Source: a candidate division WOR-3 bacterium
GTDB taxonomy: Bacteria; Hydrothermota; Hydrothermia; LBFQ01; DSFT01
NCBI GenBank assembly: GCA_965649115.1
Contig: CBFGJN010000012.1
Span: 1-38,674, forward strand
Length of the DNA stretch: 38,674 nt
Direction of reading: 5' to 3'
Shown here piece after piece: positions 4,561 through 27,421 of this stretch. Below the pieces are notes generated by a model. That model did not search any database, had not been told where the DNA came from, and saw only the letters and a list, made by a program, of their open reading frames with translations. The position numbers and the translations under genes were made by a program. How positions within the stretch are numbered: position 1 is the stretch's first letter; the number at the start of each line of letters is the position of its first letter.

Positions 4561-4566
4561 AAGCAT

Positions 4567-4603: not shown

Positions 4604-4710
4604 ATATTTTTTCCCACCCACCCTATGAAATAAGCCTTCGGCTTAAAAATGCCCGTATTTCGGCAGGGGGCTGACACCCCCATATTAAACCCCCAATAAA
4701 ATCAATAATT
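4604..4710 (-). repeat. Intergenic repeat family copy (internal modules only, TIRs not recognisable)
   Basis: CCCACCCACCCT 4613-4624, TAAGCCTTCGGCTTA 4631-4645, CCC 4652-4654, GGGGG-ctgaca-CCCCC hairpin, CCCCCAATAAAATCAATAATT; boundaries approximate. Confidence 0.75.
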
Positions 4711-4774
4711 AGACTTTTCCCCTTTAAGCTGTACCCCCCCATTTCTCTTAATAATGAACTTTAAACTTTTAAAA

Positions 4775-5521: not shown

Positions 5522-5793
5522 AAAATCTAAAATTTTTTATTTTCATCTTAATTATTGGTCTTCTTGGAATTTTAAATGTTTGGATAAATAATATCGTTTA
5601 TATAAAAGCAAGGAAAATTGATGAACTTAAAGACGAACGAGACATATGGTATATAAAATATATGAATTCAATAAGTGATTATTACAAAAGGAGATGGAAT
5701 TATGAAGTTAAGGATAGTTTTAATACTTCTATTTTTGATAGCTTGGTATCTGATAGCAATAATAAAGTTGTTCCAAATTCAAATTCTAGATAA
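5512..5793 (+). CDS. Small bitopic membrane protein, FtsL-like
   Basis: One N-terminal TM helix followed by coiled-coil-like segment, directly upstream of and overlapping a class B PBP. Confidence 0.5.
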   Translation: MVLKNLKFFIFILIIGLLGILNVWINNIVYIKARKIDELKDERDIWYIKYMNSISDYYKRRWNYEVKDSFNTSIFDSLVSDSNNKVVPNSNSR

Positions 5794-7261: not shown

Positions 7262-7460
7262 TATGAACTTCTTCTGCTTGAAAGTTTATTTTTGAATGAG
7301 TACCATCACAAAAGGGTTTATTGTTTGAACCTCCACACCTACAAAGATAGATTACATTTTTATTTATTTTTTCTTCCTTGCCATCTCTTTCAATAATGAA
7401 ATTTCCGTTTTCAATCTCAACTTTATATGGACCGTTTTTAAGTGGTGTTATCTTGAACAT
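7245..7460 (-). CDS. CDGSH iron-sulfur domain protein
   Basis: LCRCGGSNNKPFCDGTH motif and N-terminal NGPY. Confidence 0.93.
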   Translation of the reverse strand: MFKITPLKNGPYKVEIENGNFIIERDGKEEKINKNVIYLCRCGGSNNKPFCDGTHSKINFQAEEVHIKSSE

Positions 7461-7557
7461 ATTGAAATTTTAAAGTAAAAAATTAAACCTTATGGAATTT
7501 GCTTTGTCCAATAAGTAATTTAAATAATTGATTTTATTTTAGGGGGCTTAGCCCCCT
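7461..7557. repeat. Direct repeat, left copy (97 bp) flanking the RM cassette; contains -10 box (7467-7472, minus), a repeat-family TIR and the AGGGGGC-TTA-GCCCCCT hairpin
   Basis: 96/97 identical to 9679-9775 (single difference g7501/a9719). Confidence 0.93.
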
Positions 7558-7705
7558 ACCGAAAAAAGCATATAGAATTTAGTTATTAAGCACTTTTTCA
7601 GCTACAAGGAATTTAAAATTTGCATATGAATTGCTATGTAGAGCGATTAAATTGAAATTTTATTACAAAAAACAAAAAATGTTCTGTTTGTCTAATGTTT
7701 TTTCA

Positions 7706-8584
7706 TCATTTTGTTTTAAAACTATAATACTCACTTAATCTATCAGTTAATAAATTTGCTAATTGATTGTAAGGTTTAGTATGTTGGTTTTTGAAATATT
7801 CTAATAAAAGTTGTAGTGTAGTTCCTTCTCTAAATATTGCTTTCATTATTCCTTCTTTCCAAAGTATTTCATTTTCAAGAATCTTTCGCCAGGTTCTTAA
7901 TTCTAAATTTTTGATCTCTTCAAAACTCTCTTTGGGAGAGCTATCAAAATTTATTTCTGGCAAATCAGGTAAATTGTCTTTCCATCTTTTTAACCAAATA
8001 AGCATATTCTCCCAAATCTCGGGCCTTTTTAGATAATCAAATAATTCTTTGCCATAGAAAAGATAGAGTTTCACTCCATAAAATTCTTCAAGTCTCTTTA
8101 GTTCTTGAAAATAATAATTCTTATTTTTTGAAAGATCGGGGTCAATGAAATACATAATACCAACCAAGCTTGAGCCGTGTTTCTTATGCAAAATTTCAAG
8201 CTTTGTTTCAAAATTAGATACCTGCCCTCGCTTTTTTGTAGAGTCGTGATCGTCTCTTACTTTTTGCTCAATGAAATAATATATTTGCCCATCTGTGAAA
8301 TACTGATCCAATAATAACTTTTTGCCACTTTCATCTATTATGCTTTTAGCCAAAATTTTAAAACCGAGAGACCTTATTATTTCTTCTACGATTTCTTCAA
8401 GAGCATCACCCATACGAATTTCATGAGATTGAAGTAAATGTTGTAATATCTTTGCGTTAGGTTTTGTCGGTCTAAATAAACCTATAAAGCGCTCGGGTTT
8501 ATCAGCTATTCTTCTTAGTAGCTCTTTCTTTTCACCTTCAAATATATGCTTGTTTAAAATAGTGCAGAATTTTTCATAGTTCAT
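7706..8584 (-). CDS. Type II restriction endonuclease, HpyAIV-like family
   Basis: PERFIGLFRPTKP, QSHEIRMGDALE, DQYF...FIEQKVRDDHDSTKKRGQ (PD-(D/E)xK-type core); 4-nt overlap with MTase. Confidence 0.8.
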   Translation of the reverse strand: MNYEKFCTILNKHIFEGEKKELLRRIADKPERFIGLFRPTKPNAKILQHLLQSHEIRMGDALEEIVEEIIRSLGFKILAKSIIDESGKKLLLDQYFTDGQIYYFIEQKVRDDHDSTKKRGQVSNFETKLEILHKKHGSSLVGIMYFIDPDLSKNKNYYFQELKRLEEFYGVKLYLFYGKELFDYLKRPEIWENMLIWLKRWKDNLPDLPEINFDSSPKESFEEIKNLELRTWRKILENEILWKEGIMKAIFREGTTLQLLLEYFKNQHTKPYNQLANLLTDRLSEYYSFKTK

Positions 8585-9504
8585 TTTAACTCCTCCAAGT
8601 TCAAGTGTTTTTCTATATTTTTCTTATTTAATAGTAGATGGTCTGTTATTTTCAGTGGATGTTTAAATCTTTCTTCTATTGCTTTTACATACTTAGGATT
8701 AATTTCAATCATCACAAAATCTCTTTTTAATGCTTGAGCAACATATCCGGTAGTTCCACTCCCTGCCATAGGATCTAAAATTAAATCTCCTTCTTTCGTA
8801 GATGTCAATATAACTCTTTTAAGAAGTTCAATTGGTTTTTGAGTAGAGTGAATTTTTTTACCTTCTTCATCTTTTAATCTTTCCTTCCCTTGACAAATAG
8901 GAAGAACCCAAACATTTGATCCTACTTTTCCGATACCAAAAGATTTTGCATACTCTTTATTGAATGTATATTTTTTACACTTTTTGTCTTTTACAGCCCA
9001 TATAAGGGTCTCCGTAGCATTTGTAAAGCGAACACCTAACCAATTTGGCATAGGATTTGTTTTCACCCAAATTACATCATTGAGAATCCAAAATCCTAAA
9101 TCCTGCATTATTTTTCCTATCCTAAAAATACTATGATATGTGGAAATAACCCATATTGTAGCAGTAGGTTTCATTACCCTTTTCACTTCAGTAAGAAGCA
9201 GTTTGATAAAATCATCGTATTCCTGAAACGAAGAAAATTTATCCCAGTCATCAGTTACTCCCTCCACCACTGTTTTCACTTTCCATCGTTTTAACTCTTT
9301 TTTTGGCAATTGCAGGAAATAAGGTGGGTCAATAAAAACCATATCAAAAACTTCACTATCTATCTTTTTAAGCACTTTAAAGGCATCTCCTAAAATAACT
9401 TTGTTCTTAATCTCATCTAAAAGATATTTCTGCTTCTCTTCTTTGTCATATACGACAAGGTTCATACTATCATTTAAATTATTTTTAAATAAACTCATTT
9501 GCAT
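8581..9504 (-). CDS. Beta-class N6-adenine DNA methyltransferase, M.HinfI/CcrM/M.HpyAIV-like
   Basis: DPPY before motif I (LDPMAGSGTT); DDWDKF, YHSIFRIG, FWILNDVIWVKTNPMPN, RFTNATETLIWA, HSTQKP. Confidence 0.93.
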   Translation of the reverse strand: MQMSLFKNNLNDSMNLVVYDKEEKQKYLLDEIKNKVILGDAFKVLKKIDSEVFDMVFIDPPYFLQLPKKELKRWKVKTVVEGVTDDWDKFSSFQEYDDFIKLLLTEVKRVMKPTATIWVISTYHSIFRIGKIMQDLGFWILNDVIWVKTNPMPNWLGVRFTNATETLIWAVKDKKCKKYTFNKEYAKSFGIGKVGSNVWVLPICQGKERLKDEEGKKIHSTQKPIELLKRVILTSTKEGDLILDPMAGSGTTGYVAQALKRDFVMIEINPKYVKAIEERFKHPLKITDHLLLNKKNIEKHLNLEELK

Positions 9505-9677
9505 ATTTTTGTGTAATACTGAACACTATTTACCCAGTAGAGTTTTAACTCTTCACCATTGTAAGGTATAGCATATCTATGCCCCCTTATAGAATAGCGA
9601 TACTGCGGAATAAAATCACCTTCTTCGTAGTACCCCTCAAAATATGGATCTTTTTTGAGAGTTATTATCCTAAACAT
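9495..9677 (-). pseudogene. Chimeric 60-codon ORF: duplicated CDGSH 5' end fused to a fragment resembling a large type III Mod-like methyltransferase
   Basis: MFRIITLKKDPY vs CDGSH MFKITPLKNGPY (28/36 nt identical); YYEEGDFIPQYRY...YAIPYNGEELKLYWVNSVQYYTK recalls the YAIPYNGEEV.L.WAN.DQYY.K segment of such methylases (from memory, not searched). Confidence 0.6.
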
Positions 9678-9678
9678 A

Positions 9679-9775
9679 ATTGAAATTTTAAAGTAAAAAA
9701 TTAAACCTTATGGAATTTACTTTGTCCAATAAGTAATTTAAATAATTGATTTTATTTTAGGGGGCTTAGCCCCCT
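9679..9775. repeat. Direct repeat, right copy (97 bp) flanking the RM cassette; contains -10 box at 9685-9690 (minus)
   Basis: 96/97 identical to 7461-7557. Confidence 0.93.
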
Positions 9776-9850
9776 GACAAAAAATGGAGATTTTAAAGCC
9801 GAAGGCTTAAATACAGGGTGGGTGGGAAGAATAGGAATTAAATTTTTTTT
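9718..9850 (+). repeat. Intergenic repeat family copy (left TIR, single IHF-like site, C-hairpin, hairpin/G-tract module)
   Basis: TACTTTGTCCAATAA 9718, AGGGGGCTTAGCCCCCT 9759-9775, AAGCCGAAGGCTT 9796-9808, AGGGTGGGTGGG 9815-9826; right end approximate; isolated variant hairpin TAAGGCAAAGCCTTA at 9949-9963. Confidence 0.78.
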
Positions 9851-9980
9851 GAAAAAACAATAGAGGTCAGATTATTAAAATTAAATTGATAAATTGAATA
9901 AAGCAAACTCAAAAGCAGAAAAGAGATGAATAGTTTTAAGCCTTTTATTAAGGCAAAGCCTTATTTTTAAAATTTTCCTT

Positions 9981-9986
9981 TAAAAT
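9981..9986 (+). promoter_or_regulatory. -10 box 9 nt upstream of rimP ATG
   Basis: cctt TAAAAT tttcaaact ATG, no Shine-Dalgarno. Confidence 0.6.
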
Positions 9987-9995
9987 TTTCAAACT

Positions 9996-10427
9996 ATGTC
10001 AAGTATTGAACAAAAAATAGAAGAAATTGTAATGCCCATTATTGAAGATGAAGGTTATGTTCTCGTTGATATTGAATATAGAAAAAGTGGAAAATTTAGC
10101 ATTTTGAGAATTTTTATAGATAGAAAGGAAGGTGGTATTACAATAAAGGAACTTGAAGAAATTAGTAAGAAAATATCATTAGCTCTTGATGTTGAAGATC
10201 CAATAGAAAACTCATATACTCTTGAAGTTTCTTCTCCTGGACTTGATAGAGAATTAGTTAAGGATAGGGAATTGAAATGGGCTATTTCTAAGAAAGTTAA
10301 AATTTTTTTTAAAAATGGCAGCACTTACGAAGGTTTTCTAAATAGTTTTAATGATGAAGAGATTGTTGTATCTGGAAAGGTATATAAAAGGGTTGATATT
10401 TTAAAGATAAAACTAAACGAGGTTTAA
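9996..10427 (+). CDS. rimP: Ribosome maturation factor RimP
   Basis: LRIFID, YTLEVSSPGLDREL; first gene of rimP-nusA-infB. Confidence 0.95.
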   Translation: MSSIEQKIEEIVMPIIEDEGYVLVDIEYRKSGKFSILRIFIDRKEGGITIKELEEISKKISLALDVEDPIENSYTLEVSSPGLDRELVKDRELKWAISKKVKIFFKNGSTYEGFLNSFNDEEIVVSGKVYKRVDILKIKLNEV

Positions 10428-10430
10428 GCT

Positions 10431-11642
10431 ATGCTTGACTTTGAAAGGGTGGTGGAGAATCTTGTGAGAACAAGGAATCTTGAAAGAGAGGATATATTAA
10501 ATGTTTTTAAGTCCGTTGTTGAAGATGCTGTAAGAAAGTACTACAATACAAATGTTGAATTCCAAATAGGAAAAGAAATGAAAGTTATTGTATATAAAAA
10601 AGTTGTTAAAAAAGTTAATGACCCTGCAAATGAAATATCTATTCAAGAAGCCAAAAAGTACGATCCACAAGCAATAGAAGGTTCAGAAGTGAAGGTTCCT
10701 ATTTTATTAGAAAACTTACCAAGGACTGTTGTATATAGGATAAGAGATAAATTTTTAGAGAAACTAAAAGATAAAGAAAAACAAATTATTTTAATGGATT
10801 TTTCAAAGAAAATTGGTCAAATTGTCCGGGGGAAAGTTCAAAGAATAAATAAGAAAGATAACTCAGTTATTTTAGCTATTGAAAGAAGCGAAGCTGAAGG
10901 TAAACTTTCCGTAGAAGAAATGCTACCTTCTGACGTTGAAAAAATAAAGCAAGGAGACACTAAAAAAGCTGTAATTATAGGTATAGATGAAAAGGAAAAG
11001 TACGTTCTGTTATCAAGGACACATCCAGATTTTTTAAAGAAATTATTGGAGGAAGAAATAGCTGAAATTTTGGATGGAACAGTTGAAATAAAACAAGTTG
11101 CAAGGATACCTGGTAAGAGGTCAAAAGTTGCTGTCTTTTCAAGAGAAACAAGGATAGATCCTGTTGCAGTTGTTGTAGGAATTAAAGGAACAAGATTAAA
11201 TCCTATACAAAAGGAATTAGAAGGAGAAAAAATAGATATTGTTAAATGGGATCCTGATATAATAAAATTTTCAGTAAATGCTCTTCAAAGTCCTCATATT
11301 ATAACGGCTTATAAATTAGAAGATAAAATTTATGTTGTCGTAGATGACGAGCACATTGGTGAAGTTAAAGGTTCAGAAGGTTTGAATGTTATTTTAGCTT
11401 CAAAGTTAATAGGAAAAGATATTATTATTCTTGGTTTATCAGAGTACTCAAAACCAAAGAATGTAGTTACGATAATAGAGATTCAAAAACAATTTCCTGT
11501 TAGTGTTATAGAATTATTAAGAAATAATGGTCTTTATTCATTTAATGAAGAACCAACCTTAGCGAGTCTATATAATATAGGTTTAGATGAAAAAACTGCT
11601 TTAAAACTTATAGAATTCATAGAGGAGAAGTTAAATGAATAG
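10431..11642 (+). CDS. nusA: Transcription termination factor NusA
   Basis: S1 and KH domains: LSRTHP, ARIPGKRSKVAV, ELEGEKIDIV; synteny. Confidence 0.95.
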   Translation: MLDFERVVENLVRTRNLEREDILNVFKSVVEDAVRKYYNTNVEFQIGKEMKVIVYKKVVKKVNDPANEISIQEAKKYDPQAIEGSEVKVPILLENLPRTVVYRIRDKFLEKLKDKEKQIILMDFSKKIGQIVRGKVQRINKKDNSVILAIERSEAEGKLSVEEMLPSDVEKIKQGDTKKAVIIGIDEKEKYVLLSRTHPDFLKKLLEEEIAEILDGTVEIKQVARIPGKRSKVAVFSRETRIDPVAVVVGIKGTRLNPIQKELEGEKIDIVKWDPDIIKFSVNALQSPHIITAYKLEDKIYVVVDDEHIGEVKGSEGLNVILASKLIGKDIIILGLSEYSKPKNVVTIIEIQKQFPVSVIELLRNNGLYSFNEEPTLASLYNIGLDEKTALKLIEFIEEKLNE

Positions 11643-13749
11643 AAAAGGTCCTATTCAAATTAGAGAATTAGCCAAGGAGCTGGGCATAACTGTAAAAACT
11701 GCTATTGAATTATTAAAGGAAGGTGGTTATGATGTTAAGTCAGGATTTAATAAAGTAAATAAAGAAATGGAGGATTATTTAAGAAGAAGATTGGAGGAAG
11801 AAAGAGAAGAAGTCCAAAAAGATATAGAGAAGAAAAGGCAAATATATCAGAAGGTTGAACCACCAAATAAAAAAGTTCCAAGAAGATTTCAACAAAAGCA
11901 AGTAAATGAAGAAATTAAAAAGGAGGAAGAAAAACCTATAAAGCAAATAGCTAAACCAAAGCCAAAGGTTAAAAAGGAAACAAAAGAAAATGTGGAAGAA
12001 ATTCAAGAGGAAAAAATTATAGAGATTCCAGGACCATTAACAGTTGCTGAATTATCAAAAATTATGGGAAAATCTCCATCTGAAATAATAAAAGTTTTAT
12101 TTGATCTTGATTATATTGCTACAATAAATCAAACATTATCTCTTGATATAATTGAAATTGTTGCAGAACATTTCGGTTTTAAAGTAAAGAAACAGGAAGT
12201 TAAAGAAGAGGTTATTGAGGAAAAAATAGAATATGATTATATTAGACCCCCTATTGTTACTATAATGGGGCATGTTGATCATGGGAAAACTACACTTCTT
12301 GACAAAATTAGAAATACTAATGTTGCTGAGAAAGAAGAGGGAAGAATCACGCAGAGAATTGGAGCCTATCAGGTTGAATATATGGGTAAGAAAATTACAT
12401 TTATAGATACACCTGGTCATGAAGCATTTACAGCAATGAGGGCTAGGGGTGCCCAGATTACTGATATTGTAATACTTGTCGTTGATGGTAGAGAGGGAGT
12501 TAAGGAACAGACAATTGAAGCCTTGAATCACGCCAAGGCAGCAGGTGTTAAGATCATTGTTGCTATTACAAAGATGGATTTGCCTGATGCCAATCCTGAT
12601 ATGGTAAAAAGACAACTTTCTGAACATGGTTTAATTCCTGAGGAGTGGGGTGGAAGTACATTATTTATTCCAGTTTCTGCGTATAAAGGGATTGGAATAA
12701 ATGATTTACTTGAAGCTATATTAATTGTAAGTGAAGAGTTGGATTTAAAAACAACAACTAAGGGATATGCTAAAGGAGTTGTTCTTGAATCTAAAATGGA
12801 TAAGGGAAGAGGTCCTGTTGCTACACTTATTGTTCAAAGAGGTATATTACAACCTGGCGATATTGTTGTTGCAGGCTATACTTATGCAAGAATTAGAGCT
12901 ATGTATAATGATTTTGGGGCAAAGGTTGATAAAGCTTATCCTTCAGATCCTGTTCTCGTTCAAGGATTTGAAGAACTTCCAAGAGCAGGGGATAAGTTTG
13001 AAGTCGTAGAAGATATAAACAAAGCTCGTGAAATTGTTGAAGAAAGAAGAAAAACACTTAAAATTCAAATATCTCGCGGTGAAATGCAATCTCTAACTAA
13101 AAAAATTCAAGAAAAGATATTGACAGGTGAAAAGAAAGAATTAGCAATTGTTATTAAAGCAGATAATTATGGAACACTTGAAGCAATAAAGGACAGCATA
13201 AGTAAGATGGAATTTGAGAAAGTAAAACCAGTTATTATCCATAGTGGAATTGGCGATATTACTGAGAGTGATGTGATGCTGGCGGAAGCAAGTGAAGGAA
13301 TTGTTATTGGATTTGCAGTTAAAATTGATAATAGAGCAAGGAGTTATGCTGAATCTAAAAAGATACCTGTTAAAATTCATAGAATTATTTATCATTTACT
13401 TGATGATCTAATTAAGTTTATGCAAGGTATTTTAGAGCCAGAATATAAGGAAGAATTAGTAGGTAAAGCAGAGGTGAAGGCAGTTTTTAAAACGAAAGTC
13501 GGTAAAGTTGCTGGATGCTATGTTGTTGAAGGTAAAATTTTGAAAAGTGCCGAAAAGGCAAAGCTTATAAGAGAAAACAATATTATATATGAAGGTAAAA
13601 TTGAAAGTTTAAGACATTTTCAAAGTGATGTTGAAGAAGTTAATGCTGGTATGGAGTGCGGAATTAGGCTCACTAATTGGAATGATTATAAGGAAGGTGA
13701 TATTATTGAAGTTTATAGAGTTTTGAAAATCACGCCCAAATTGGTATGA
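11635..13749 (+). CDS. infB: Translation initiation factor IF-2
   Basis: [44 protein letters not shown]. Confidence 0.98.
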
Positions 13750-14027
13750 TTATTGGTGTTCTTGAAATTGAAATTTTCATACCTTATAGTAATTCAATAA
13801 AAGAAAAACGCTATATTATCAAAAGTATTAAGGATAAAGTTAAGTCCAAATATAATGTTTCAATAGCTGAACTTGATTATTATGATGCATGGCAAAGAAG
13901 TAAGATAGGATTTGCTTGTTTAAGCAATAGTGTAAGTTATATAAATAACTATCTTATGGATTTATTAAGATTTTTAGAAGAAGATAGAAGATTTGAAATT
14001 ACAATGTCCAAGATAAATTGGTTTTAA
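13746..14027 (+). CDS. DUF503 (YlxP-like) protein
   Basis: [32 protein letters not shown]; usual position after infB. Confidence 0.88.
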   Translation: MIIGVLEIEIFIPYSNSIKEKRYIIKSIKDKVKSKYNVSIAELDYYDAWQRSKIGFACLSNSVSYINNYLMDLLRFLEEDRRFEITMSKINWF

Positions 14028-14093
14028 AAATGCTTTATCCAAAGTAAATAAGTTTTTGCCTCGGCAAAAGATGGAGTATTTATAGAGCTCTCT

Positions 14094-14395
14094 ATGATAG
14101 AAAAATTAAATAAAGTTTTAGAGAAACTACCACCAGAGGATAGAGAAATAATGATGGAAGCATTTACAATTCTTATTGAAGAAGTAATAAATGCTATTAT
14201 TAAAGGAAATGAGAGAATTTGGCAAGCAATTGACAGATTAGACAAAAAAATAGATAGAAAAATAACATCACTTGGGGCAAGGTAGGGATTAATGGCAGAA
14301 GAAACATTCAGAGAAGGAATAAAAACTATAAAGATAGTAAGAGAATAGCAATTGAAATAAAATCATCAATTAGTAAAGGTGATGTTTCTCCATTT
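14094..14395 (+). pseudogene. Degraded DUF3782/DUF1626-like coiled-coil + PD-(D/E)xK nuclease-domain gene
   Basis: Reads ITSLGAR*GLMAEETFREGIKTI through TAG 14283-14285 (family motif LGARWG, TGG>TAG), then after a frameshift/deletion KDSKRIAIEIKSSISKGDVSPF. Confidence 0.7.
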
Positions 14396-14427
14396 GATTT
14401 GCTAATGATAAAGCAATCGTTATTGCT

Positions 14428-14480
14428 AGCGGTTGGGAAAATATAGAAAAATAAATACTTTTAGAATCATTAGATACACG
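14428..14480 (+). repeat. Degenerate right half of the intergenic repeat family
   Basis: AGCGGTTGGGAAAATATAGAAAAATAAATACTTTTAGAATCATTAGATAC matches the G-tract to right-TIR part of other copies. Confidence 0.6.
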
Positions 14481-14495
14481 AATTTCTTTTCACTT

Positions 14496-14501
14496 TAAAA
14501 T
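14496..14501 (+). promoter_or_regulatory. -10 box 7 nt upstream of ATG 14509
   Basis: actt TAAAAT ttcagtt ATG. Confidence 0.6.
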
Positions 14502-14508
14502 TTCAGTT

Positions 14509-16014
14509 ATGAACAACTTAACTCCATTAGAAGCATATGAAGAACTTTACAAAATTTCAAGAAAATTAGCCTATATATCTTCTGCTCTTTCTCTTTCAGG
14601 TTGGGATGAGAGAACTTATATTCCACCTCTTGGCTATAAACATAGAGCCGAACTTCATGCAATACTAAATGAATATATTTATGAAGAATGGACAAAAGAT
14701 TATATAGGTGATTTAATTAACAGAGCAAAGGAAGGAGATTTAGATGAAGTTCAAAAAGCTAATTTATATTGGTGGGAAAGAAGTTATATAAGAAATAAAA
14801 AAATTCCAAAAGAGCTTTTAATTAGACATGTAAGAGTTTCAACAGTCGCTTATCAAGTCTGGAAAGAAGCAAGAGAAAAAAGTGATTTTGAAATGTTCAA
14901 ACCCTACTTGAAAGAAATTATAGATATATTGAGAGAGGAGGCAAGAATTCTTGGTTATAAGAATGAGCCTTATGATGCTTTAATAGATAAATATGAACCA
15001 GAAATGACAGCAGAGGAAATTTCAAAAATTTTTGAAAAGCTAAAAACTGAAACATTAAGACTCCTAAATAGAGTTAAAAATTCTAAAAAGGATTTTAAAA
15101 CCCATCTAATTAAAGGATACTTTGAAAAAGAAAAACAAAAGGAATTTTGTAAATTCTTACTTGAGAAAATAGGTTTTGACTTTAAGAAGGGTAGGCTTGA
15201 TGAAACAACACATCCTTTTGCAACGAGAATTTTACCTATGGATATAAGAATAACTACAAGATTTTATGAGGATAATATCATTTCAAGCATTTTTGGAACA
15301 CTTCACGAGATGGGACATGCATTTTATGAAATGGGATTAAGAGAGGAGTTTTTTGGCACTCCTGCTGGGGAATCAGTTTCGCTTGGTATTCATGAATCAC
15401 AATCAAGATTTTGGGAGAATTTTATAGGAAGAAGCTTCGCATTTTGGGAATTATTCTATGATGATTTGAAGAGATTCTTCCCACAATTTGAAAATGTTAA
15501 AATGGAGCATTTTTATTTAGCAATAAATGAAATTAAACCATCTTTTATTAGAGTTGAAGCAGATGAATTAACTTACAATTTACATATTATTTTAAGATTT
15601 GAGCTTGAAAGGGATGTAATAAATGGTAAATTAGAAGTTGATGATTTAAGAGATGCTTGGAATGAAAAATTTGAAAAATTATTTGGATTTAGACCTAAGG
15701 ATGATAAGGATGGAATTCTTCAAGATGTTCATTGGTCTTCTGAAATGGGATATTTCCCTACATATACACTTGGAAATTTAAATGCTGCTCAAATTTTCCA
15801 TAAAATTAATAAAGAGCTTGGTAATATATATGAATTTGTAAAAAAAGGTGATTTTAAAGTTATTTATGATTGGTTATCTGAAAAGATATATCAAAAAGGT
15901 TCTTTATATAAACCACAAGAGCTTATTGAGAAAACAACAGGTGAAAAAACAAACCCAAAATTCCTAATAAATTATCTTGAAAACAAAATAGAGCACTTAC
16001 TGAGTATAGATTGA
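14509..16014 (+). CDS. Carboxypeptidase M32 (Taq-like)
   Basis: HPF, DIRITT, HEMGH (HExxH), HESQ, IRVEADE, QDVHW, GYFPTYTLG. Confidence 0.96.
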   Translation: MNNLTPLEAYEELYKISRKLAYISSALSLSGWDERTYIPPLGYKHRAELHAILNEYIYEEWTKDYIGDLINRAKEGDLDEVQKANLYWWERSYIRNKKIPKELLIRHVRVSTVAYQVWKEAREKSDFEMFKPYLKEIIDILREEARILGYKNEPYDALIDKYEPEMTAEEISKIFEKLKTETLRLLNRVKNSKKDFKTHLIKGYFEKEKQKEFCKFLLEKIGFDFKKGRLDETTHPFATRILPMDIRITTRFYEDNIISSIFGTLHEMGHAFYEMGLREEFFGTPAGESVSLGIHESQSRFWENFIGRSFAFWELFYDDLKRFFPQFENVKMEHFYLAINEIKPSFIRVEADELTYNLHIILRFELERDVINGKLEVDDLRDAWNEKFEKLFGFRPKDDKDGILQDVHWSSEMGYFPTYTLGNLNAAQIFHKINKELGNIYEFVKKGDFKVIYDWLSEKIYQKGSLYKPQELIEKTTGEKTNPKFLINYLENKIEHLLSID

Positions 16015-16015
16015 A

Positions 16016-17080
16016 TTGGTAATAAATAAAGGGTTTATTTTAGCATATAGAATTTACGACATAGCAAGTGAAATTGATTTAAATAAATTATCAAATTCAA
16101 TAGATTCTAAGAGAATAGAGATGTCAAAGAAATTTGGTAAAAGACTTGTTTATTTGAGAAATCCTCCCATAATTATATTTCTTGAAGAAGTAAGTTATAA
16201 AAATTTGAAAACGCAAGTTTTCGCTAAATTTTATGAATTTGGAGCAGTTAGTATAATCCTAAAAATAATAATTGATGGGTTTGACATAAGGCAATTATTT
16301 AGGTTTTTTAGAGAAGTTCTTGAAGATGAAAAAATAGACGAAATATCAAAAGATTACTTAAACAAAATTTTTAATCAATATCATTCCTACTTAAAAAAGC
16401 CATCAATATATGAAGACTATGAAGATTATACGATAATATATATTCAATCTTTTAATAGAAATTTCAAAAGTTTTGAAATTCTTCAAGAAATTGATTTGGC
16501 TAAACTATTACTTGGTGAGAAATATCATTTAAGTGATCAAATTGAAACTAATTTATTGAGAAATAAGTTTTCTTATTCTGATGAAGATCTAATAGTTTTA
16601 AATTGGGATAGTTGTTTCATATATGAGCCTGATGGTATTATGGATGTTCCTGATCTTATTGAATTTGCTAATGCTCAAATCCTTGAATTAAGATACTACG
16701 ATAGTTATCTTGATAAGGTTCTTGAAGAAACTTATAATACTATTGAGAGTTTCAAAGGTTCAATTTTTGAGTATTATAAATATCAAAAAATTTTGAAGCG
16801 ATTACTTTTGCTTTATAACGAGATTACAGAAGCAAAGGAGATGATTTTAAATAGTCTTAAAATTATTGAAGATTCTTACCTTGCAAGAATATATTCAAAA
16901 ATGCTCGAAATTCTTGGAGCATATAATTGGCAAAGAAGTATAGATAGTAAGGAAAGGACACTCTTTGAAATATACAATTTCTTAAATACCCAAGTTTCTA
17001 ATAGGAGATTGGAATTCCTTGAAATTATAATTATTTTTGTAATTTTAGCTGAAATGATTATTTTTTTAGTAATAAGATAA
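16016..17080 (+). CDS. RMD1/DUF155-like protein with C-terminal TM helix
   Basis: YEFGAVS, EFANAQILELRYYD, DSYLARIY, RRLEFLEIIIIFVI; TTG start 1 nt after upstream stop. Confidence 0.7.
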   Translation: MVINKGFILAYRIYDIASEIDLNKLSNSIDSKRIEMSKKFGKRLVYLRNPPIIIFLEEVSYKNLKTQVFAKFYEFGAVSIILKIIIDGFDIRQLFRFFREVLEDEKIDEISKDYLNKIFNQYHSYLKKPSIYEDYEDYTIIYIQSFNRNFKSFEILQEIDLAKLLLGEKYHLSDQIETNLLRNKFSYSDEDLIVLNWDSCFIYEPDGIMDVPDLIEFANAQILELRYYDSYLDKVLEETYNTIESFKGSIFEYYKYQKILKRLLLLYNEITEAKEMILNSLKIIEDSYLARIYSKMLEILGAYNWQRSIDSKERTLFEIYNFLNTQVSNRRLEFLEIIIIFVILAEMIIFLVIR

Positions 17081-17132
17081 ATAAATAGAAAAAAATAAGT
17101 CAATCCAATAGTAATAATTTCAGATTAAACAT

Positions 17133-17188
17133 GGGGTGGGTGGGAAAAAATAGAAAAATAAATAATTTTATAATTACTAGACAAGGCA
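17133..17188 (+). repeat. Right half of intergenic repeat family (G-tract to right TIR)
   Basis: GGGGTGGGTGGG 17133-17144 ... AATTACTAGACAAGGCA ending 17188. Confidence 0.72.
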
Positions 17189-17196
17189 CAATACAA

Positions 17197-17402
17197 TGCT
17201 TTGTCCAATAATTATTGTTAAATCCTTGATTATCAATAACTTATAAAAGCTTTGAGGAAATTATAGATTTTATGGGGGGATTATTAGGAGGGCTTTGCCC
17301 CCCATAGCCTAAATATGGGAATTTGTAAGCCGAAGGCTTAGTTACAGGGTGGGCGGGCAAAGAATAGAAATAATTTACATTTCAGAATTCCTAGACAAAA
17401 CA
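17197..17402 (+). mobile_element. Full-length (206 bp) copy of the intergenic repeat family, MITE-like, with 8-bp flanking duplication
   Basis: TGCTTTGTCCAATAATT ... AATTCCTAGACAAAACA; CAATACAA at 17189-17196 and 17403-17410; all internal modules present. Confidence 0.8.
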
Positions 17403-17423
17403 CAATACAATAAATTCAAGCTT

Positions 17424-17429
17424 TAAAAT
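17424..17429 (+). promoter_or_regulatory. -10 box 10 nt upstream of rplY ATG
   Basis: gctt TAAAAT tttcggactt ATG. Confidence 0.55.
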
Positions 17430-17439
17430 TTTCGGACTT

Positions 17440-18057
17440 ATGAAAACTTATAAGCTTAGAGTAAAATTAAGAGAAAATATAGGAACTTCATATGCAAAAA
17501 AACAAAGAGAAGAAGGATATATTCCTGCTGTTGCTTATGGTAAAAATGAAAATAATCTTCATATTCTTGTACCTAAAAAAGATTTTTACAAACTAATTAG
17601 ACAAATAGGTGAAGAAACCGCTATTGTTGAGCTTGAATATGATAGTTCTAATAAAAAAGCTCTTATTCAAGAGATTCAAAGAGACATTGTCACTGGTGAA
17701 GTTATTCATGTAGATTTTCACATTATTCATGCAAAAGAAAAGGTTAGTGTAAGTGTTCCTGTAGTTGTTAAAGGTCAGGAAAATTCACCAGGTTTGAAGA
17801 AGGGTGGAATTCTTGAAATTCATTTACATACAATAGATATAAAAGCACTTCCTGAACATATACCCGGGCATATAGAAGTAGATATATCAAATCTTGATAT
17901 AGGAAAAACTATTCATATAAAAGATTTAAGAATTGAAAATGTGGAGTTTGAAGAGGATCCCGAAGAAGTTATTTTATCTATAATAGCTCCAAAAATAGAG
18001 GAAAAAACTGAAACTCAACAACAGACAGAAACACAGCAACAAACACCTCAAAAGTAA
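17440..18057 (+). CDS. rplY: 50S ribosomal protein L25/Ctc
   Basis: GYIPAVAYG, IQRDIV..VIHVDF, GLKKGGIL, IPGHIEVDIS; upstream of pth. Confidence 0.96.
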   Translation: MKTYKLRVKLRENIGTSYAKKQREEGYIPAVAYGKNENNLHILVPKKDFYKLIRQIGEETAIVELEYDSSNKKALIQEIQRDIVTGEVIHVDFHIIHAKEKVSVSVPVVVKGQENSPGLKKGGILEIHLHTIDIKALPEHIPGHIEVDISNLDIGKTIHIKDLRIENVEFEEDPEEVILSIIAPKIEEKTETQQQTETQQQTPQK

Positions 18058-18617
18058 TGCTTTATATTGTTGGTCTTGGTAATTATGGTGAATCTTATAG
18101 GAAAAATAGGCATAATGTTGGATGGATTTTTTTAGATTATTTAGCGAATAAATTGAATTGTTCTTTTAGGTCAGGGAAGGGTGATTATGCTATTGCGGAA
18201 TGTGGTAAATTTAAGCTTTTTAAACCATTAACATTTATGAATTTATCTGGATTAGCTGTTAAGCAAATTTCAGATTATTATAAATTAAATTTTACTAATC
18301 TTATTATTATTTATGATGATGCAGATTTACCATTAGGGACAATCAAGTTCAAATTGAAAGGTTCTGCTGGAACTCATAATGGCATGAAATCTGTTTTGTA
18401 TTATTTGGGAACTGATGAAGTTCCAAGAATAAGAATTGGTATTGGGAAACCTCAAAATTTATCGCTTAAAGATTGGGTTTTATCTGACTTTACAGATGAA
18501 GAGTTAAGAGTTTTAAATGAAAAGTTTGAGAAAATTTATCAGGGTCTTTTGATGTACGAAAGGGGTGAAATCCAAAAAGCTCTTCAATTTATAAATACAA
18601 AGGAGGTAAAGGTATGA
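18057..18617 (+). CDS. pth: Peptidyl-tRNA hydrolase
   Basis: VGLGN, RHNVG, KPLTFMNLSG, GSAGTHNG, RIRIGIG. Confidence 0.96.
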   Translation: MLYIVGLGNYGESYRKNRHNVGWIFLDYLANKLNCSFRSGKGDYAIAECGKFKLFKPLTFMNLSGLAVKQISDYYKLNFTNLIIIYDDADLPLGTIKFKLKGSAGTHNGMKSVLYYLGTDEVPRIRIGIGKPQNLSLKDWVLSDFTDEELRVLNEKFEKIYQGLLMYERGEIQKALQFINTKEVKV

Positions 18618-20710
18618 ATCTTGTTATTTTCTCACTTATATCCGCTGTTGTATCTTTTATTGCTGCTCTTATTTATTCATATATGGTAAGAAAAAAAGAA
18701 GCCGGAACTGATGATATGGTTTCCATTTCTTCATATATTCGTGAGGGTGCAAGAGCCTTCTTAAAAAGAGAATATAAAACTATTGCTATTCTTTCACTTA
18801 TTGTAATTTTAATAATTGCTTTTGGTTTATCATACGAAGGATTAAGCTATGTTATATACACAATTATTGCTTTTGTTTTTGGAGCATTCTTTTCACTGCT
18901 TGCTGGTTGGATAGGAATGGATACCGCTACAATATCTAATGTTAGAACAACTAACGCTGCTAAAAATAAAGGATTAATTGAAGCATTTAAAATTGCTTAT
19001 CTTGGTGGTTCAGTTATGGGTTTAAGTGTTGCAAGTTTATCAATTCTTGGAATGTCTGGACTATTTATTTTATTCTATTTAATTAGTAATGATATTCAAC
19101 TTTCTGCAAGTGTAGTTGCTGGTTTTTCAATGGGTGCTGCATTTGTAGCTCTATTTGCAAGAGTTGGTGGTGGAATATACACTAAGGCAGCTGATGTTGG
19201 AGCTGATTTAGTTGGGAAAGTTGAAGCGGGTATTCCAGAAGATGATCCAAGAAATCCAGCAGTTATAGCAGATAATGTTGGGGATAATGTAGGTGATACT
19301 GCTGGAATGGGAGCAGATTTGTACGACTCACTTGTAGCGGGAACAGTTTCTGCTATTGTAATAGCTGCTTTTGCTAAAAATGCTGATCCTATGTTAGGTA
19401 TAGGTTATGCATTAGCACTTGGTGCTATTGGAACATTAGTTTCTATATTTGGTTATTTCTTTATTGGATTTTTAAAGAATTTAAAGCCTGAAAGGATTTT
19501 GCTTTCAACTGTATTCATTGTTGGTTTATTGTTTGCCATTTTCTCTTTATTTTTAACAAAGGCTTTATTTGGTAATTTAACTCTATTTTGGCCATTAGTT
19601 TTTGGACTTGTTTCAGGGATTTTAATTGGGTACATTGCAGAATTTTTCTCAACAGGCAAAAGGATTGTTGAACTTGCAGAAGCTGCAAATTCAGGTGTTG
19701 CTGTTAATATAATTGAGGGTATTGCATTAGGTATGAGAAGTGCTGTTATTCCTGGTATTGCTGTTGCTATATCATTTGTAATTGCATTTAAAATGGGAGA
19801 GGCAAGTGGGTACGGTGGGTTTTATGGGGTCGCTATTGCTTGTATAGGTATGCTTGCTATAACTGGTATTACTGTCACTGTTGATGCATTTGGTCCTATT
19901 GCTGATAATGCCGGTGGCATTGCTGAAATGTCAGGACTTGGAAAGGAAGTTAGAAGTATAACAGACATTTTAGATGCTGCTGGGAATACTACTGCTGCTA
20001 TTGGAAAAGGTTTTGCTATTGGTTCTGCTATATTTACAGTAATGGCGGTATTTTCTGCATTTTCAGATATGATTACTCAAAGATTTGGTTTAGAATTTAA
20101 TCCTTCTTTAATGAAACCAGAAGTTGTAGCAGCAGCATTAATTGGTGCTATTATTCCATTCTTTTTCTCATCAGGTGCTATGAGAGCTGTTGGAAGAACT
20201 GCTAAAATTGTTGTTGAGGAGGTTAGAAGGCAGTGGAGGGAAATTCCAGGATTACTTGAAGGAAAAGTTGGCGTTAAGGCGGATTATGCTAAGATAGTTG
20301 ATATAACAACGGAAGGTGCTATCAAAAATATGACTGTTCCTGGAATGATTGCATTCCTTTCACCAATTATTGTAGGCATATTATTTGGTCTTGAAGCCCT
20401 TGGTGGATTTTTAGTTGGAGCAATGGTTTCAGGAATTCCTTTGGCTTTAACTATGAATAATGCTGGTGCCGCATGGGATAATGCTAAGAAATTCATTGAG
20501 CAGAGCGGTGCTTTCGGAGGTAAAGGCTCTCAGGCTCATAAAGCAAGTGTTGAAGGTGATACAGTTGGAGATCCATTTAAGGATACTGCTGGTCCCTCTT
20601 TAAATATTTTATTAAAGATGATGTCTATTGTTTCATTAGTATTCTTGCCTTTTATTTATCAATTTCATAATGTTTTAATTAATGCTTTAAAATTTATATT
20701 TGGTAGTTAA
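18614..20710 (+). CDS. hppA: Membrane-integral ion-translocating pyrophosphatase, K+-dependent type
   Basis: GGGIYTKAADVGADLVGKVE, EDDPRN, DNVGDNVGD, GNTTAAIGKG (Ala signature), GDTVGDPFKD. Confidence 0.96.
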   Translation: MNLVIFSLISAVVSFIAALIYSYMVRKKEAGTDDMVSISSYIREGARAFLKREYKTIAILSLIVILIIAFGLSYEGLSYVIYTIIAFVFGAFFSLLAGWIGMDTATISNVRTTNAAKNKGLIEAFKIAYLGGSVMGLSVASLSILGMSGLFILFYLISNDIQLSASVVAGFSMGAAFVALFARVGGGIYTKAADVGADLVGKVEAGIPEDDPRNPAVIADNVGDNVGDTAGMGADLYDSLVAGTVSAIVIAAFAKNADPMLGIGYALALGAIGTLVSIFGYFFIGFLKNLKPERILLSTVFIVGLLFAIFSLFLTKALFGNLTLFWPLVFGLVSGILIGYIAEFFSTGKRIVELAEAANSGVAVNIIEGIALGMRSAVIPGIAVAISFVIAFKMGEASGYGGFYGVAIACIGMLAITGITVTVDAFGPIADNAGGIAEMSGLGKEVRSITDILDAAGNTTAAIGKGFAIGSAIFTVMAVFSAFSDMITQRFGLEFNPSLMKPEVVAAALIGAIIPFFFSSGAMRAVGRTAKIVVEEVRRQWREIPGLLEGKVGVKADYAKIVDITTEGAIKNMTVPGMIAFLSPIIVGILFGLEALGGFLVGAMVSGIPLALTMNNAGAAWDNAKKFIEQSGAFGGKGSQAHKASVEGDTVGDPFKDTAGPSLNILLKMMSIVSLVFLPFIYQFHNVLINALKFIFGS

Positions 20711-25321: not shown

Positions 25322-26443
25322 ATGACAGAAAAAACTTTATATTATATAAAGCCATTTACTGATGAGCCAATAAGATTCATAGGAAGCGAAGGAGAACCTC
25401 TATTTGATTTTAAACCCGAAGATATAGGACTTAGTGAAGAGGATTTAAAAACAATATATTACTATATGAAACTAACAAGAGCTTTTGATAGAAAAGGTAT
25501 GTTCTTAACTCGTTCAGGAAAGGCTTTATTTTATGTAGAAGTTGCTGGTCAAGAAGCAGCAACAGTTGCAAGTGGTTATGCCATTCCAGAAAATGATTGG
25601 ATATTTCCTGCACATAGAGAGCATGGTGTTTTGATAGTAAGAGGTTATCCTCTTGTTGAATTATTTGCTCAAATAATGGGTAGAATGGAAGTTAATAAAG
25701 CAAGACAAATGCCTGTTCACTGGGGTATGAGAAAACTAAGAATTTTAACAATTTCAAGCCCTGTTGGAAATCAATTACCACAGGCGGTAGGTATTGGTAT
25801 GGCTATAAACTACTTAAAGAAAGATGAAGCTATAATTGCTTATGTTGGTGATGGTGGTTCTTCAACTGGTGATTTTCATACCGCTTTAACATTTGCAAGT
25901 GTCTTTAAAACTCCAACAATAATTTTTGTTCAGAATAATCAATGGGCTATATCTGTTCCTACTAAAAGACAATATGGTTCAAAAAATATAGCAATTAAGG
26001 CAGTAGCTTATGGAATAGATGGTTATTATATTGATGGTAATGATTTTCTTGCTGTTTATGCTACCACAAAATTAGCATTTGAAAAAGCTCATAATAAGGA
26101 ACCTGTTTTAATTGAAGCATTGACTTATAGATATGGCTCTCATTCAACAGCTGACCAAGCGGATAGATATAGAGATATTAAAGAACTTGAATATTGGCAA
26201 AAAACTTGGGATCCTATTAAAAGGGCAAGATTATATTTACAAAGAATAGGAATATGGAATGAGGATTGGGAAAAGGAGTTAGATGAACAAATTGAAAATG
26301 AATTAAATAAAGCCATTGATGAAGCTGAAAAGAGACCAGAGCCAGGACCTGAGACAACATTTGAAGATGTTTATGCACAAATGCCTTGGCATATAAAGGA
26401 AGAAATGGAAGAACTTTTAAAAGAACTAAATGAGGGTGCGTAG
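25322..26443 (+). CDS. pdhA: 2-oxoacid (pyruvate/branched-chain) dehydrogenase E1 alpha subunit
   Basis: GQEA, RQMPVHW, TPP motif GDGGSSTGDF...NNQWAIS, TYRYGSHSTAD; substrate specificity uncertain. Confidence 0.85.
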   Translation: MTEKTLYYIKPFTDEPIRFIGSEGEPLFDFKPEDIGLSEEDLKTIYYYMKLTRAFDRKGMFLTRSGKALFYVEVAGQEAATVASGYAIPENDWIFPAHREHGVLIVRGYPLVELFAQIMGRMEVNKARQMPVHWGMRKLRILTISSPVGNQLPQAVGIGMAINYLKKDEAIIAYVGDGGSSTGDFHTALTFASVFKTPTIIFVQNNQWAISVPTKRQYGSKNIAIKAVAYGIDGYYIDGNDFLAVYATTKLAFEKAHNKEPVLIEALTYRYGSHSTADQADRYRDIKELEYWQKTWDPIKRARLYLQRIGIWNEDWEKELDEQIENELNKAIDEAEKRPEPGPETTFEDVYAQMPWHIKEEMEELLKELNEGA

Positions 26444-26507
26444 CTCAGTTGGTTAGAGCGCCATCCTCACACGATGGAGGTCCCCCGTTCAAATCGGGGC
26501 GCACCCA
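26434..26507 (+). tRNA. tRNA-Val (anticodon CAC), CCA not encoded
   Basis: Acceptor GGGTGCG/CGCACCC+A, D arm TAGCTCAGTTGGTTAGAGC, anticodon arm CCATC-ctCACac-GATGG, T arm CCCCG-TTCAAAT-CGGGG. Confidence 0.97.
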
Positions 26508-26509
26508 TT

Positions 26510-27421
26510 ATGATTGATTCAGAAAGTGCCTATGAAAGAATAAGGAACTACATAAGAAAAACTCCTGTTATTAAATATAAAGATCACTATTTTAAGCTTG
26601 AAAATTTACAAAAATCGGGTTCTTTTAAGCCTCGTGGAGCATACAATAAAATTTTGAAAAATTTAAATAAAATAAATGGCGTTGTTTGTGCTTCAAGTGG
26701 AAATCATGCCCAGGCAGTTGCTAAGGTTTGCTCGGATTTGGGAATAAAGAATGTAAAAATTATAATTCCTAAAAAAACTCCTCAAATAAAAGTCAATAAA
26801 ATAAGAAATTATGGTTACGAGCCAGTTTTCTATGGAAGTCATTTAAATGAAAGTTTAAGTTATGCAAAGGAAATATCTGAAAAAGAAAATTTATTATTTG
26901 TTCATCCTTATGATGATATAGATATTATTGAAGGTCAAAGTACAATTGGAATAGAAATTGAAAATTATAATTTTGATTATTTATTTATTCCTGTTGGTGG
27001 AGGAGGATTAGCTAGTGGTATTTCACTTTATATTAAAAAAAACAAACCAAATGTGAAAATTTATGGAGTTGTTTCAAGGAATGCTCCGAGCTTTTATTAT
27101 TCATTCAAAGAAAATAGAATTTTGGAAATTGAACCAAAAGAAACAATTGCAGATGGTATAAAATTGAAATATCCAAGCAATTTAACATTTAAAATTCTAA
27201 AAGAACTTCTTGAAGATGTTATAATGGTAGAAGAAGAAGAAATTAAATATGCTATTAAATGGGCATATTATAATTTAGGTTTAATTCTTGAAGGAGCAGG
27301 TGCTATTTGTTTATCAATTTTAATTTTTAATAAATTGAAAATTCAAGGAAGTGCTATGTTTATTTTGAGCGGTTCAAATATAGACGAATCTGTTTTAGAT
27401 GATATTATTAAGGATTATTGA
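26510..27421 (+). CDS. PLP-dependent threonine/serine dehydratase (catalytic domain only)
   Basis: KLENLQKSGSFKPRGA, SSGNHAQ, HPYD, PVGGGGL, SGSNI; track start 26474 lies inside the tRNA so ATG 26510 is preferred. Confidence 0.9.
   Translation: MIDSESAYERIRNYIRKTPVIKYKDHYFKLENLQKSGSFKPRGAYNKILKNLNKINGVVCASSGNHAQAVAKVCSDLGIKNVKIIIPKKTPQIKVNKIRNYGYEPVFYGSHLNESLSYAKEISEKENLLFVHPYDDIDIIEGQSTIGIEIENYNFDYLFIPVGGGGLASGISLYIKKNKPNVKIYGVVSRNAPSFYYSFKENRILEIEPKETIADGIKLKYPSNLTFKILKELLEDVIMVEEEEIKYAIKWAYYNLGLILEGAGAICLSILIFNKLKIQGSAMFILSGSNIDESVLDDIIKDY

Follow-up and report, generated by a model that had tools for sequence, protein, structure and literature searches.

The G-rich module at 17317-17357 (+) raises the question of why four G-runs and a hairpin should recur in a genome that is otherwise very poor in G and C, and whether they do so for the benefit of the genes beside them. 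We examined this in a window of 38,674 nt, i.e. the whole stretch of DNA that was analysed (contig C12), which also encodes NusA, IF2, RpoD and a PBP. The host assembly has 1.85 Mb in 99 contigs, is 94.5% complete and has a GC content of 27.6%; the GC content of its tRNAs is 63%. The initial annotation had proposed that the module folds as a hairpin-capped G-quadruplex (G4) in single-stranded DNA or RNA and serves as a protein-binding, regulatory or recombination signal.

Read from 5′ to 3′, the module consists of a GGG (17317-17319), which is the putative first G4 tract and is intact in 312 of the 409 copies spanning it, followed by AATTTGT, the hairpin H2 (AAGCC-GAA-GGCTT, 17327-17339, with a 5-bp stem and a GNA-type triloop), AGTTACA, and GGGTGGGCGGG at 17347-17357, in which three G-runs separated by 1-nt pyrimidine linkers are read directly from the sequence. 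Upstream of these, on the same strand, lie the first G-run of the core (GGGGGG, 17274-17279, model columns 78-83) and another hairpin, H1 (GGAGGGC-TTT-GCCCCCC, 17287-17303), for which the family consensus is GGGGGGC-NNN-GCCCCCC.

Exact GGGYGGGYGGG was found seven times in the window, in addition to one match with a single mismatch, compared with a mean of 0.06 in dinucleotide shuffles of the window, none of which (0 of 100) reached eight. The four-run module is present in five of the seven exact cores, and all five places at which four intact runs had been claimed were confirmed, namely 1711-1751 (-), 4613-4654 (-), 17317-17357 (+), 30160-30203 (-) and 38621-38660 (+), with a gap of 26-28 nt between run 1 and run 2. 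It had also been claimed that nine copies carry three G-triplets 3′ of the hairpin. A recognisable hairpin is indeed present in nine window copies, but the three runs are intact in only six of them (1711, 4613, 9816, 17347, 30160 and 38650), the hairpin-bearing copies at 30377, about 30490 and about 38395 being degenerate. A further copy, at 17134, has the G-runs and no hairpin, since it is truncated at its 5′ side. The T/C variation of the single-base linkers could be reproduced genome-wide; among 409 copies, column 154 has T in 319, C in 52, A in 4, G in 2 and a gap in 32, and column 158 has T in 308, C in 53, A in 3, G in 1 and a gap in 44.

In the whole genome, 315 exact three-run cores were identified. 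A GGG is present within 45 nt upstream in 287 of the 310 cores having that much upstream sequence, and the spacing between this first GGG and the three-run core is exactly 27 nt in 196 of these 287 four-run copies. The count of cores is far above chance, yet the copies are non-independent, because 311 of the 315 cores sit in a single repeat family, inside MITE hits and on the same strand, while the remaining four resemble MITE fragments. In other words, about 300 "conserved" quadruplex motifs in a 27.6% GC genome amount to one transposon family, and their copy number is not independent evidence of function. A scan of public genomes for the hairpin with the G-runs was dominated by chance matches in GC-rich genomes, and the true relatives were seven loci in one 'Ca. 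Hydrothermia' hot-spring MAG.

The module is the interior of a MITE family of about 205 bp, and not a free-standing signal. When 270 copies were aligned on their G-runs, conservation reached about 72 nt to the 5′ side and about 55 nt to the 3′ side, and comparison of the flanks revealed terminal inverted repeats (TIRs) of about 17 bp, TGCTTTGTCCAATAA... and ...TTACTAGACAMAGCA. Identity in most of their columns (1-17 and 190-206) is 93-100%, a few two-state columns being at 48-83%. A nhmmer profile made from 94 full copies matched 737 copies or fragments in the genome, about 231 of them near full length, covering 95.7 kb or 5.2% of the genome; the main size class of the element is 202-207 bp. 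Perfect 9-bp duplications flank 85 of the 204 full-length nhmmer hits, and in a scan for TIR pairs, which counts most elements in both orientations, they were found in 164 of 401 pairs and in none of the shifted control. No conserved ORF was detected in the element, its ATG columns being 43-56% identical. Two element ends were also found to bound a 1.4-kb stretch with two genes, again with a perfect 9-bp duplication. The depth over the element in hot-spring DNA runs was in 60- to 100-fold excess, as expected for a high-copy repeat.

The copy that holds the module is full length (17197-17402 (+), nhmmer model positions 1-206, E 1.3e-55), with the ends TGCTTTGTCCAATAA... and ...CCTAGACAAAACA. 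It has the direct repeat CAATACAAT on both sides, at about 17189-17197 and 17403-17411, a duplication of 9 or 10 bp, its terminal base being ambiguous. This copy forms a two-copy stack with an older 5′-truncated copy on its upstream side (17125-17188 (+), model 142-206), which has GGGGTGGGTGGG but lacks the hairpin. Upstream of the peptidase gene 2-1630 (-) there is a copy with an internal deletion (1666-1829 (-), model 1-81 and 118-206), and upstream of the ABC ATPase gene 3765-4547 (-) there is one that covers model 62-174 (4599-4711 (-)), both with four G-runs. The copy upstream of rimP at 9996 (+) (9757-9850 (+), model 89-188) has its three G-runs intact and its 5′ GGG broken (GGAG). Four G-runs are likewise present in the copy at 30117-30282 (-), facing the gene 29167-30063 (-), and in the last member (38616-38673) of a stack of MITE fragments at the window end (38355-38673 (+)). 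Two degenerate copies facing murJ at 30534 (+) lie within 30244-30543 (+), and their G-runs are broken (GGGTGGTTGGG and GGCTGGATGGGG).

With respect to an autonomous partner, the Pfam profiles PF01609, PF13737, PF13586, PF13340 and PF01797 each gave 0 matches in this assembly, which is 94.5% complete and whose 99 contigs are broken by repeats, and PF01609 had no match in the four other genomes of the genus either. TIR pairs lying 600-3000 bp apart in the assembly enclose ordinary genes and no transposase, and tblastn with the frames adjoining the transposase hits of relatives returned only housekeeping genes. As no transposase was found in the assembly, the family to which the element is assigned rests on its ends and on the length of the duplication. 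REPs, which are associated with a Y1 (RAYT) transposase, lack both TIRs and target duplications; a REP/RAYT repeat was rejected here, given the TIRs, the duplications and the absence of the Y1 transposase PF01797 from the genome. An sRNA gene or riboswitch was also rejected, with 0 Rfam matches in the window and a best score near the element of 24.6 bits against a cut-off of 59. A literature search, most subscription journals being outside its scope, returned no account of the element, nor of any bacterial MITE that bears a G4.

The L25 gene downstream of the full-length copy allows the history of this site to be followed. Its promoter and start, GCTTTAAAATTTTCGGACTT-ATG, are identical in G001, G002, G003 and G004, which belong to the same genus. 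In G001, G003 and G004 the element is absent from the site, and the upstream gene reaches nearly to the box, while G002 has a 3′ remnant only. Judged from these alignments, the element at L25 is an insertion, and a recent one at the level of the genus. In a pattern search of 31 genomes, the core was found in G000 (158), G002 (75), G003 (1) and G017 (1), and in none of G001, G004 or the other 24 genomes of the class; in a DNA search, G002 had at least 60 matches, G003 two, G004 one weak partial match and G001 none.

The -10-like promoter box CTTTAAAAT lies at 17421-17429 (+), 18 bp past the MITE end and 10 nt before the L25 ATG (17440), and is kept in the relatives without the MITE. Exact CTTTAAAAT ends at most 20 nt before the start codon, with a peak at 6-10 nt, in 365 of 1667 ORFs. 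The box-bearing genes look leaderless, since no Shine-Dalgarno site is present between the box and the start. With one mismatch allowed, the box begins 18-20 bp past the 3′ end of the element in 184 of the 467 hits that reach this end, and at 10-13 bp in 60 more; past the 5′ end, it was found in 4 and 6 of 321 hits at the same respective distances. Among co-directional spacers, 109 cores are directed toward the downstream gene versus 10 away from it, cores most often lie 80-84 nt from the start codon, and the three 3′ runs stand about 83-93 nt before the ATG. The orientation toward the box being fixed, the G-rich strand is therefore the coding strand. The copies lie upstream of unrelated housekeeping genes. 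CTTATAAAAAT, in the left part of the element, nearly matches the promoter box and is directed at the core. In the metatranscriptome run X6 (contigs, low depth), contigs were found on the coding parts of L25, pth and pyrophosphatase, with 17127-17448 lacking cover, which is too thin to count either way.

As the module lies inside a MITE and is common by descent, its recurrence cannot be used as an argument from conservation. For the 409 hits spanning the core, the identity of the G-runs was 0.63 at flank identities of both 0.53 and 0.66, 0.88 at 0.76 and 0.95 at 0.84. Rare variants (below 5% at a column) had rates of 0.038 in the G-runs, 0.047 in the 5′ GGG and 0.028 at other positions, a comparison that rests on small rates. 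Thus, the G-runs of inserted copies decay at the ordinary rate. Their conservation had been put forward as a sign of function, and this did not hold up: across single copies, runs and neighbours decay alike, a result that the initial annotation had itself named as refuting.

The lineages that amplified give a different picture. All the amplified G-run variants are intact (GGGTGGGTGGG in 183 copies, GGGCGGGTGGG in 35 and GGGTGGGCGGG in 34), each broken variant being present in five copies or fewer, whereas the 11-nt windows flanking the G-runs each have at least ten variants at about 10-36 copies. A second allele at 5% or more was found in 4 of 12 G columns versus 84 of 122 others (Fisher p 0.02, a rough value, columns and copies being non-independent). 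In the sister species G002, 27 of the 42 copies that span the core are intact, no broken form occurs more than twice, and the same subfamily variants recur. The changes in G columns are to A in 112 cases, to T in 51 and to C in 9. Regarding the hairpins, the H1 stem (GGGGGGC/GCCCCCC) is constant and its loop free, while the H2 pair 134:140 covaries (CG in 290 and GC in 117), being paired in 93% compared with 56% in shuffles. Some H2 variants bear H1-type loops. The variants of the H1 loop and those after the G-runs occur in nearly all combinations, which indicates that copies exchange segments.

Constraint thus seems to act on the spreading element and not on the host loci, since invariance in the multiplying lineages together with neutral decay after landing points to a feature that serves the element. 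We consider it probable, with moderate confidence, that the module is the GC core of a promoter-seeking MITE, kept by element-level constraint on the spreading lineages. The MITE identity, the position and orientation of the copies and the two-level pattern of conservation are directly documented by the counts above. On this reading, a non-autonomous transposon with TIRs of about 17 bp and 9-bp duplications lands with its 3′ end 18-20 bp upstream of CTTTAAAAT, nearly always in one orientation, and the four G-runs are common mainly through descent from few source copies. Only those lineages with intact G-runs and hairpin stems kept multiplying, and landed copies erode at the ordinary rate. The core would most likely be required in cis by the element, either for its spread or for its retention at the insertion, and is probably a fold-back-prone single-strand structure, rather than a regulator needed by each host gene. 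Perhaps the host may also benefit at the time of insertion, e.g. by the blocking of read-through. The loop triplets of H1 bear on the fold-back; in 212 hairpins the eight common ones make four reverse-complement pairs (GAA 48/TTC 31, TCT 40/AGA 7, AAA 29/TTT 18 and TCC 13/GGA 11), and such inversions are what template switching on a DNA fold-back would give, which concerns the hairpins and not quadruplexes.

The same invariance may have arisen with no function at all, which we regard as unlikely. The runs and stems would then be ancestral passengers, made uniform through recent bursts of very few sources and through GC-biased gene conversion among hundreds of copies. Descent from a few recent source copies could produce the invariance of the lineages with no function needed, GC-biased gene conversion among copies could give the same, and the AT-rich linkers might be unusually mutable. 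The decay of the runs in diverged copies, which is like that of the flanks, is in line with such an origin, as are the nearly free combination of H1-loop and post-run variants, which points to exchange, the H1-type loops in H2 variants and the variants common to both sister species. However, there are many subfamilies that differ at the linkers beside the runs, and none with a broken run was amplified in either species. In addition, G would be expected to be the first base lost by mutation at a GC content of 27.6%, as the excess of changes to A and T in the G columns illustrates.

Less likely still, in our estimate, the core is a transcription barrier, in which H1 and H2, perhaps with the G-runs, would stop transcripts from the upstream gene or from the internal box, so that the leaderless promoter starts cleanly at the ATG and the host tolerates or favours carriers. 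The fixed orientation does place the hairpin and AATTTTA upstream of the promoter, and at leaderless genes a read-through RNA, with an internal ATG and no Shine-Dalgarno, would be useless, a situation that could concern the 365 of 1667 ORFs with a box close to their start. The promoter-like box CTTATAAAAAT, pointing at the core from the left part of the element, the invariant H1 stem with its free loop and the covarying H2 stem are also consistent with a barrier. On the other hand, a terminator scan of window positions 1-20000 flagged no H1 or H2 hairpin and gave 6 sites in all versus 9.1 in shuffles, although the sigma-70/terminator consensus scan is uninformative in DNA as AT-rich as this. 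The T-run after H2 is interrupted (AATTTTA or a variant), and the sequence after H1 is A-rich. Purifying selection in place, which a function for the host would predict, is not seen, and a barrier leaves unexplained why the G-runs were retained over any GC stem.

Whether the module could fold as a G4 was assessed from the structures predicted for 211 distinct copies at 37 and 70 C with both RNA and DNA parameters. H1 and H2 were kept in these folds, the 5′ GGG was unpaired in 119-202 of the 211, by temperature and parameters, and the 3′ runs were largely unpaired; hence ordinary pairing would not compete strongly with a quadruplex. The long loop between the first and second runs measures 24-30 nt in 259 copies, 27 nt in 196 and 20 nt or less in 17. 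At least 50% of the loop is paired in 123 of the 259, with a mean of 48% and a mean dG of -4.0 kcal/mol (DNA, 37 C). The linkers of H2, 7 nt on each side, are non-complementary, with 126-128 opposite 146-148 mostly T against T, and an extension of the hairpin to the G-runs was rejected on this ground. A stem between the 5′ GGG and an upstream C-run, seen in the alignment fold (103-105 with 121-123), was rejected as well, the folds of single copies mostly leaving the GGG unpaired. In the window copy, the DNA fold of minimum energy pairs the C-run with the G-runs over a long range, but it is only weakly better than shuffles (z -1.6, with 9 of 200 as good), and the H1-loop and post-run variants do not covary. 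Folded as RNA, the core was no better than shuffles (z -0.4).

Previous work gives a measure for these features. In a 2015 survey, stem-loop quadruplex sequences were required to have loops of at most 20 nt that are at least 50% paired (PMC4477648); measured against this rule, the module fails on loop length and is borderline on pairing. A human sequence with a hairpin in its first loop and other loops of 2 and 1 nt was solved as a quadruplex-duplex hybrid (PMC4477648). Model oligos of the form TG3TG3TG3-X-G3T, where X has 23 or 33 nt, folded as parallel G4s in 100 mM KCl with a Tm of 63-70 C: unstructured loops gave 63-65 C, perfect hairpins 69-70 C. Placing the long loop first shifted the Tm by about 2 C, and as many as three unpaired T per side had little effect (PMC8501965). 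The oligo 17317-17357 would thus probably fold in K+ in vitro. The hairpin-capped fold proposed at the outset is physically plausible as regards the quadruplex, in view of the model oligos, the solved hybrid and the unpaired runs, but the cap does not stand, the hairpin stopping short of the G-runs with no cap stacked on the quadruplex. The growth temperature, roughly estimated at about 75 C from the proteome composition (IVYWREL rule), equals or exceeds the Tm of the model oligos, and G4 folding at such a temperature in duplex DNA would be marginal.

It is improbable, in our view, that the module acts in the cell as a folded G4, with the hairpin in its long first loop, in single-stranded DNA or RNA, where it would be a regulatory, protein-binding or recombination signal, for instance on the non-template strand upstream of promoters. 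Its design would suit this role, with four G3 runs, two 1-nt loops and a 27-nt loop in 196 of the 287 four-run copies, and with runs that are mostly unpaired in ordinary folds; oligos of mirror-image order with loops of 23 or 33 nt do fold (PMC8501965), and the solved hybrid has the same part order (PMC4477648). The invariance of the runs in amplified lineages, the pyrimidine linkers and the covariation of the H2 stem are also in its favour. Further, in a deletion subfamily from which the 5′ GGG and one half of both hairpins are missing, the three runs are still preceded by a G-run, a 3-bp mini-hairpin and a 16-18-nt loop, although recombination between the GGC-GAA-GCC words common to H1 and H2 also explains this subfamily. 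Against a working G4 are the lack of purifying selection on the runs of inserted copies and the confinement of the motif to the MITE. The short stem, the non-complementary linkers and the number of loops (123 of 259) that are at least half paired speak in the same direction, as do the estimated growth temperature and the position of the runs in duplex DNA upstream of the start site.

Returning to the GC core of a promoter-seeking MITE, a more specific version is that the two hairpins and the four G-runs together make a hairpin-bearing, quadruplex-capable structure in single-stranded DNA that serves in cis for multiplication or for the one-way docking at promoters; this we hold to be improbable. 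If true, a bacterial cut-and-paste transposon would for the first time be seen to require a structural element of the G4 type, at about 70 C. More generally, if the core is needed for transposition or promoter homing, non-B DNA would be linked to the target choice of a bacterial transposase. What is new here is that the G-runs of inserted copies decay like other positions and that only intact-run variants multiplied while the adjoining linkers vary. This contrast between invariant lineages and decaying copies directs the search for a function to the spread of the element and not to the control of host genes. The family also offers a natural experiment: in a thermophile, roughly 190 leaderless promoters have a G4-capable sequence at a constant distance upstream (about 83-93 nt), on the coding strand, and the corresponding genes of sister species are free of it.

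Among known systems, human stem-loop quadruplex sequences and hairpin-G4s share with the module four G3 runs, two very short loops and a long hairpin loop (PMC4477648, PMC8501965). Its part order is that of the solved MYT1L hybrid (PMC4477648) and mirrors that of the model oligos (PMC8501965). Unlike these, the module has a loop of 27 nt, which exceeds the 20-nt limit of the 2015 survey and is within the 23-33 nt of the model oligos, a stem of 5 bp and unpaired linkers of 7 nt. Its host is a bacterial thermophile, and the motif is bound to a transposon.

The G4 of Neisseria gonorrhoeae pilE is similar in that a G3 motif with loops of 1-2 nt precedes a bacterial promoter, presumably acting as single-stranded DNA. 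The pilE G4 is a single locus with four adjacent runs that needs a cis sRNA and an R-loop and drives gene conversion of one gene (PMC3547852; PMC13463697). The module, in contrast, combines three adjacent runs with a fourth at a distance and recurs in about 290 copies, without a diversified target gene or any sign of an sRNA. With only three adjacent runs, and with copies at unrelated housekeeping genes, a recombination G4 of the pilE type was rejected.

REP/BIME, Correia, BOX and ERIC sequences are abundant GC-rich hairpin repeats in spacers of differing base composition. As to placement, TnGBS ICEs and ISLre2-type elements, which have Mutator-like transposases, insert upstream of promoters at a fixed short distance, keep one orientation and avoid genes (PMC3942029), and this is also the behaviour of the element. 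It differs from them in that the MITE is non-coding, in that its anchor is the -10-like box of leaderless genes and not a -35 box, and in that another transposase family would be expected from its ends and 9-bp duplication.

Bacterial MITEs of the IS5 family, of the IS903 type, resemble the element in size (about 200 bp), in the lack of an ORF, in their TIRs and 9-bp duplications and in their hundreds of copies. The terminal repeats of the element may resemble IS903 ends. IS903B belongs to the IS5 family and has 9-bp direct target repeats (PMC9769513). The present family differs from IS903-type MITEs in its one-way homing to promoters and its G4-capable GC core, and in that no partner transposase was found in the assembly. 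Like them, it is present in some close relatives and absent in others, and DNA lying between two of its ends has been mobilised.

The first hairpin of the MITE core, H1, is a perfect palindrome with arms GGGGGGC and GCCCCCC, and its loop was compared between the copy at 17287-17303 of the window and the other 211 found across the genome. The triplets that form this loop come in reverse-complement pairs, namely GAA/TTC, TCT/AGA, AAA/TTT and TCC/GGA, which suggests that the H1 spacer has been inverted repeatedly through fold-back template switching. A shorter subfamily of the element is also present genome-wide (for example, the copies on contigs C2, C3 and C27), at which the 5′ arm of H1 is joined to the 3′ arm of the second hairpin, H2, giving GGGGGGC-AAA-GCCTT. 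This fusion likely arose by recombination between the GGC-GAA-GCC words common to both hairpins. Variants of H2 bearing H1-type loops were detected as well.

Within the window, two 113-nt stretches (7461-7573 and 9679-9791), 94% identical to each other, each carry a 5′ end of the element and H1 without the G-runs, and one of them lies between convergent genes. An N6/N4 DNA methylase gene (8581-9504, minus strand) overlaps by 4 nt a gene encoding a 292-aa protein, for which no Pfam match was found; together they form a gene pair (7706-9504, minus strand) that may represent a restriction-modification pair. Elsewhere, at 26434-26512, the end of tRNA-Val(CAC) (26507) is separated by only 2 nt from the in-frame ATG (26510) of a gene for a PLP-dependent enzyme.

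Across the whole genome, the box CTTTAAAAT lies upstream of 365 of 1667 ORFs; its end is 6-10 nt from the start codon and no Shine-Dalgarno sequence lies in between, so that the genes look leaderless. One example is the box and start codon of the L25 gene (17421-17442), the sequence of which is the same in all four genomes of the genus that were compared. The left part of the element (columns 30-55; window 17197-17260) contains the palindrome TTGATWATCAA, and also CTTATAAAAAT, which nearly matches the promoter box of the host and is directed into the core. This second sequence may be what is left of the transposase's promoter, or else a promoter internal to the element.

On contig C11, a 1.4-kb stretch (31359-32784, corresponding to 360-1785 of locus L111) is bounded by the 5′ end of the element on one side and a truncated 3′ end on the other, with a perfect 9-bp duplication. 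It encodes one protein of 242 aa that belongs to no known family and one of 65 aa that is weakly RelB-like. The stretch looks like a composite mobilised by the same transposase as the element. Coiled-coil cargo of a similar kind was identified between element ends on contigs C58 and C26.
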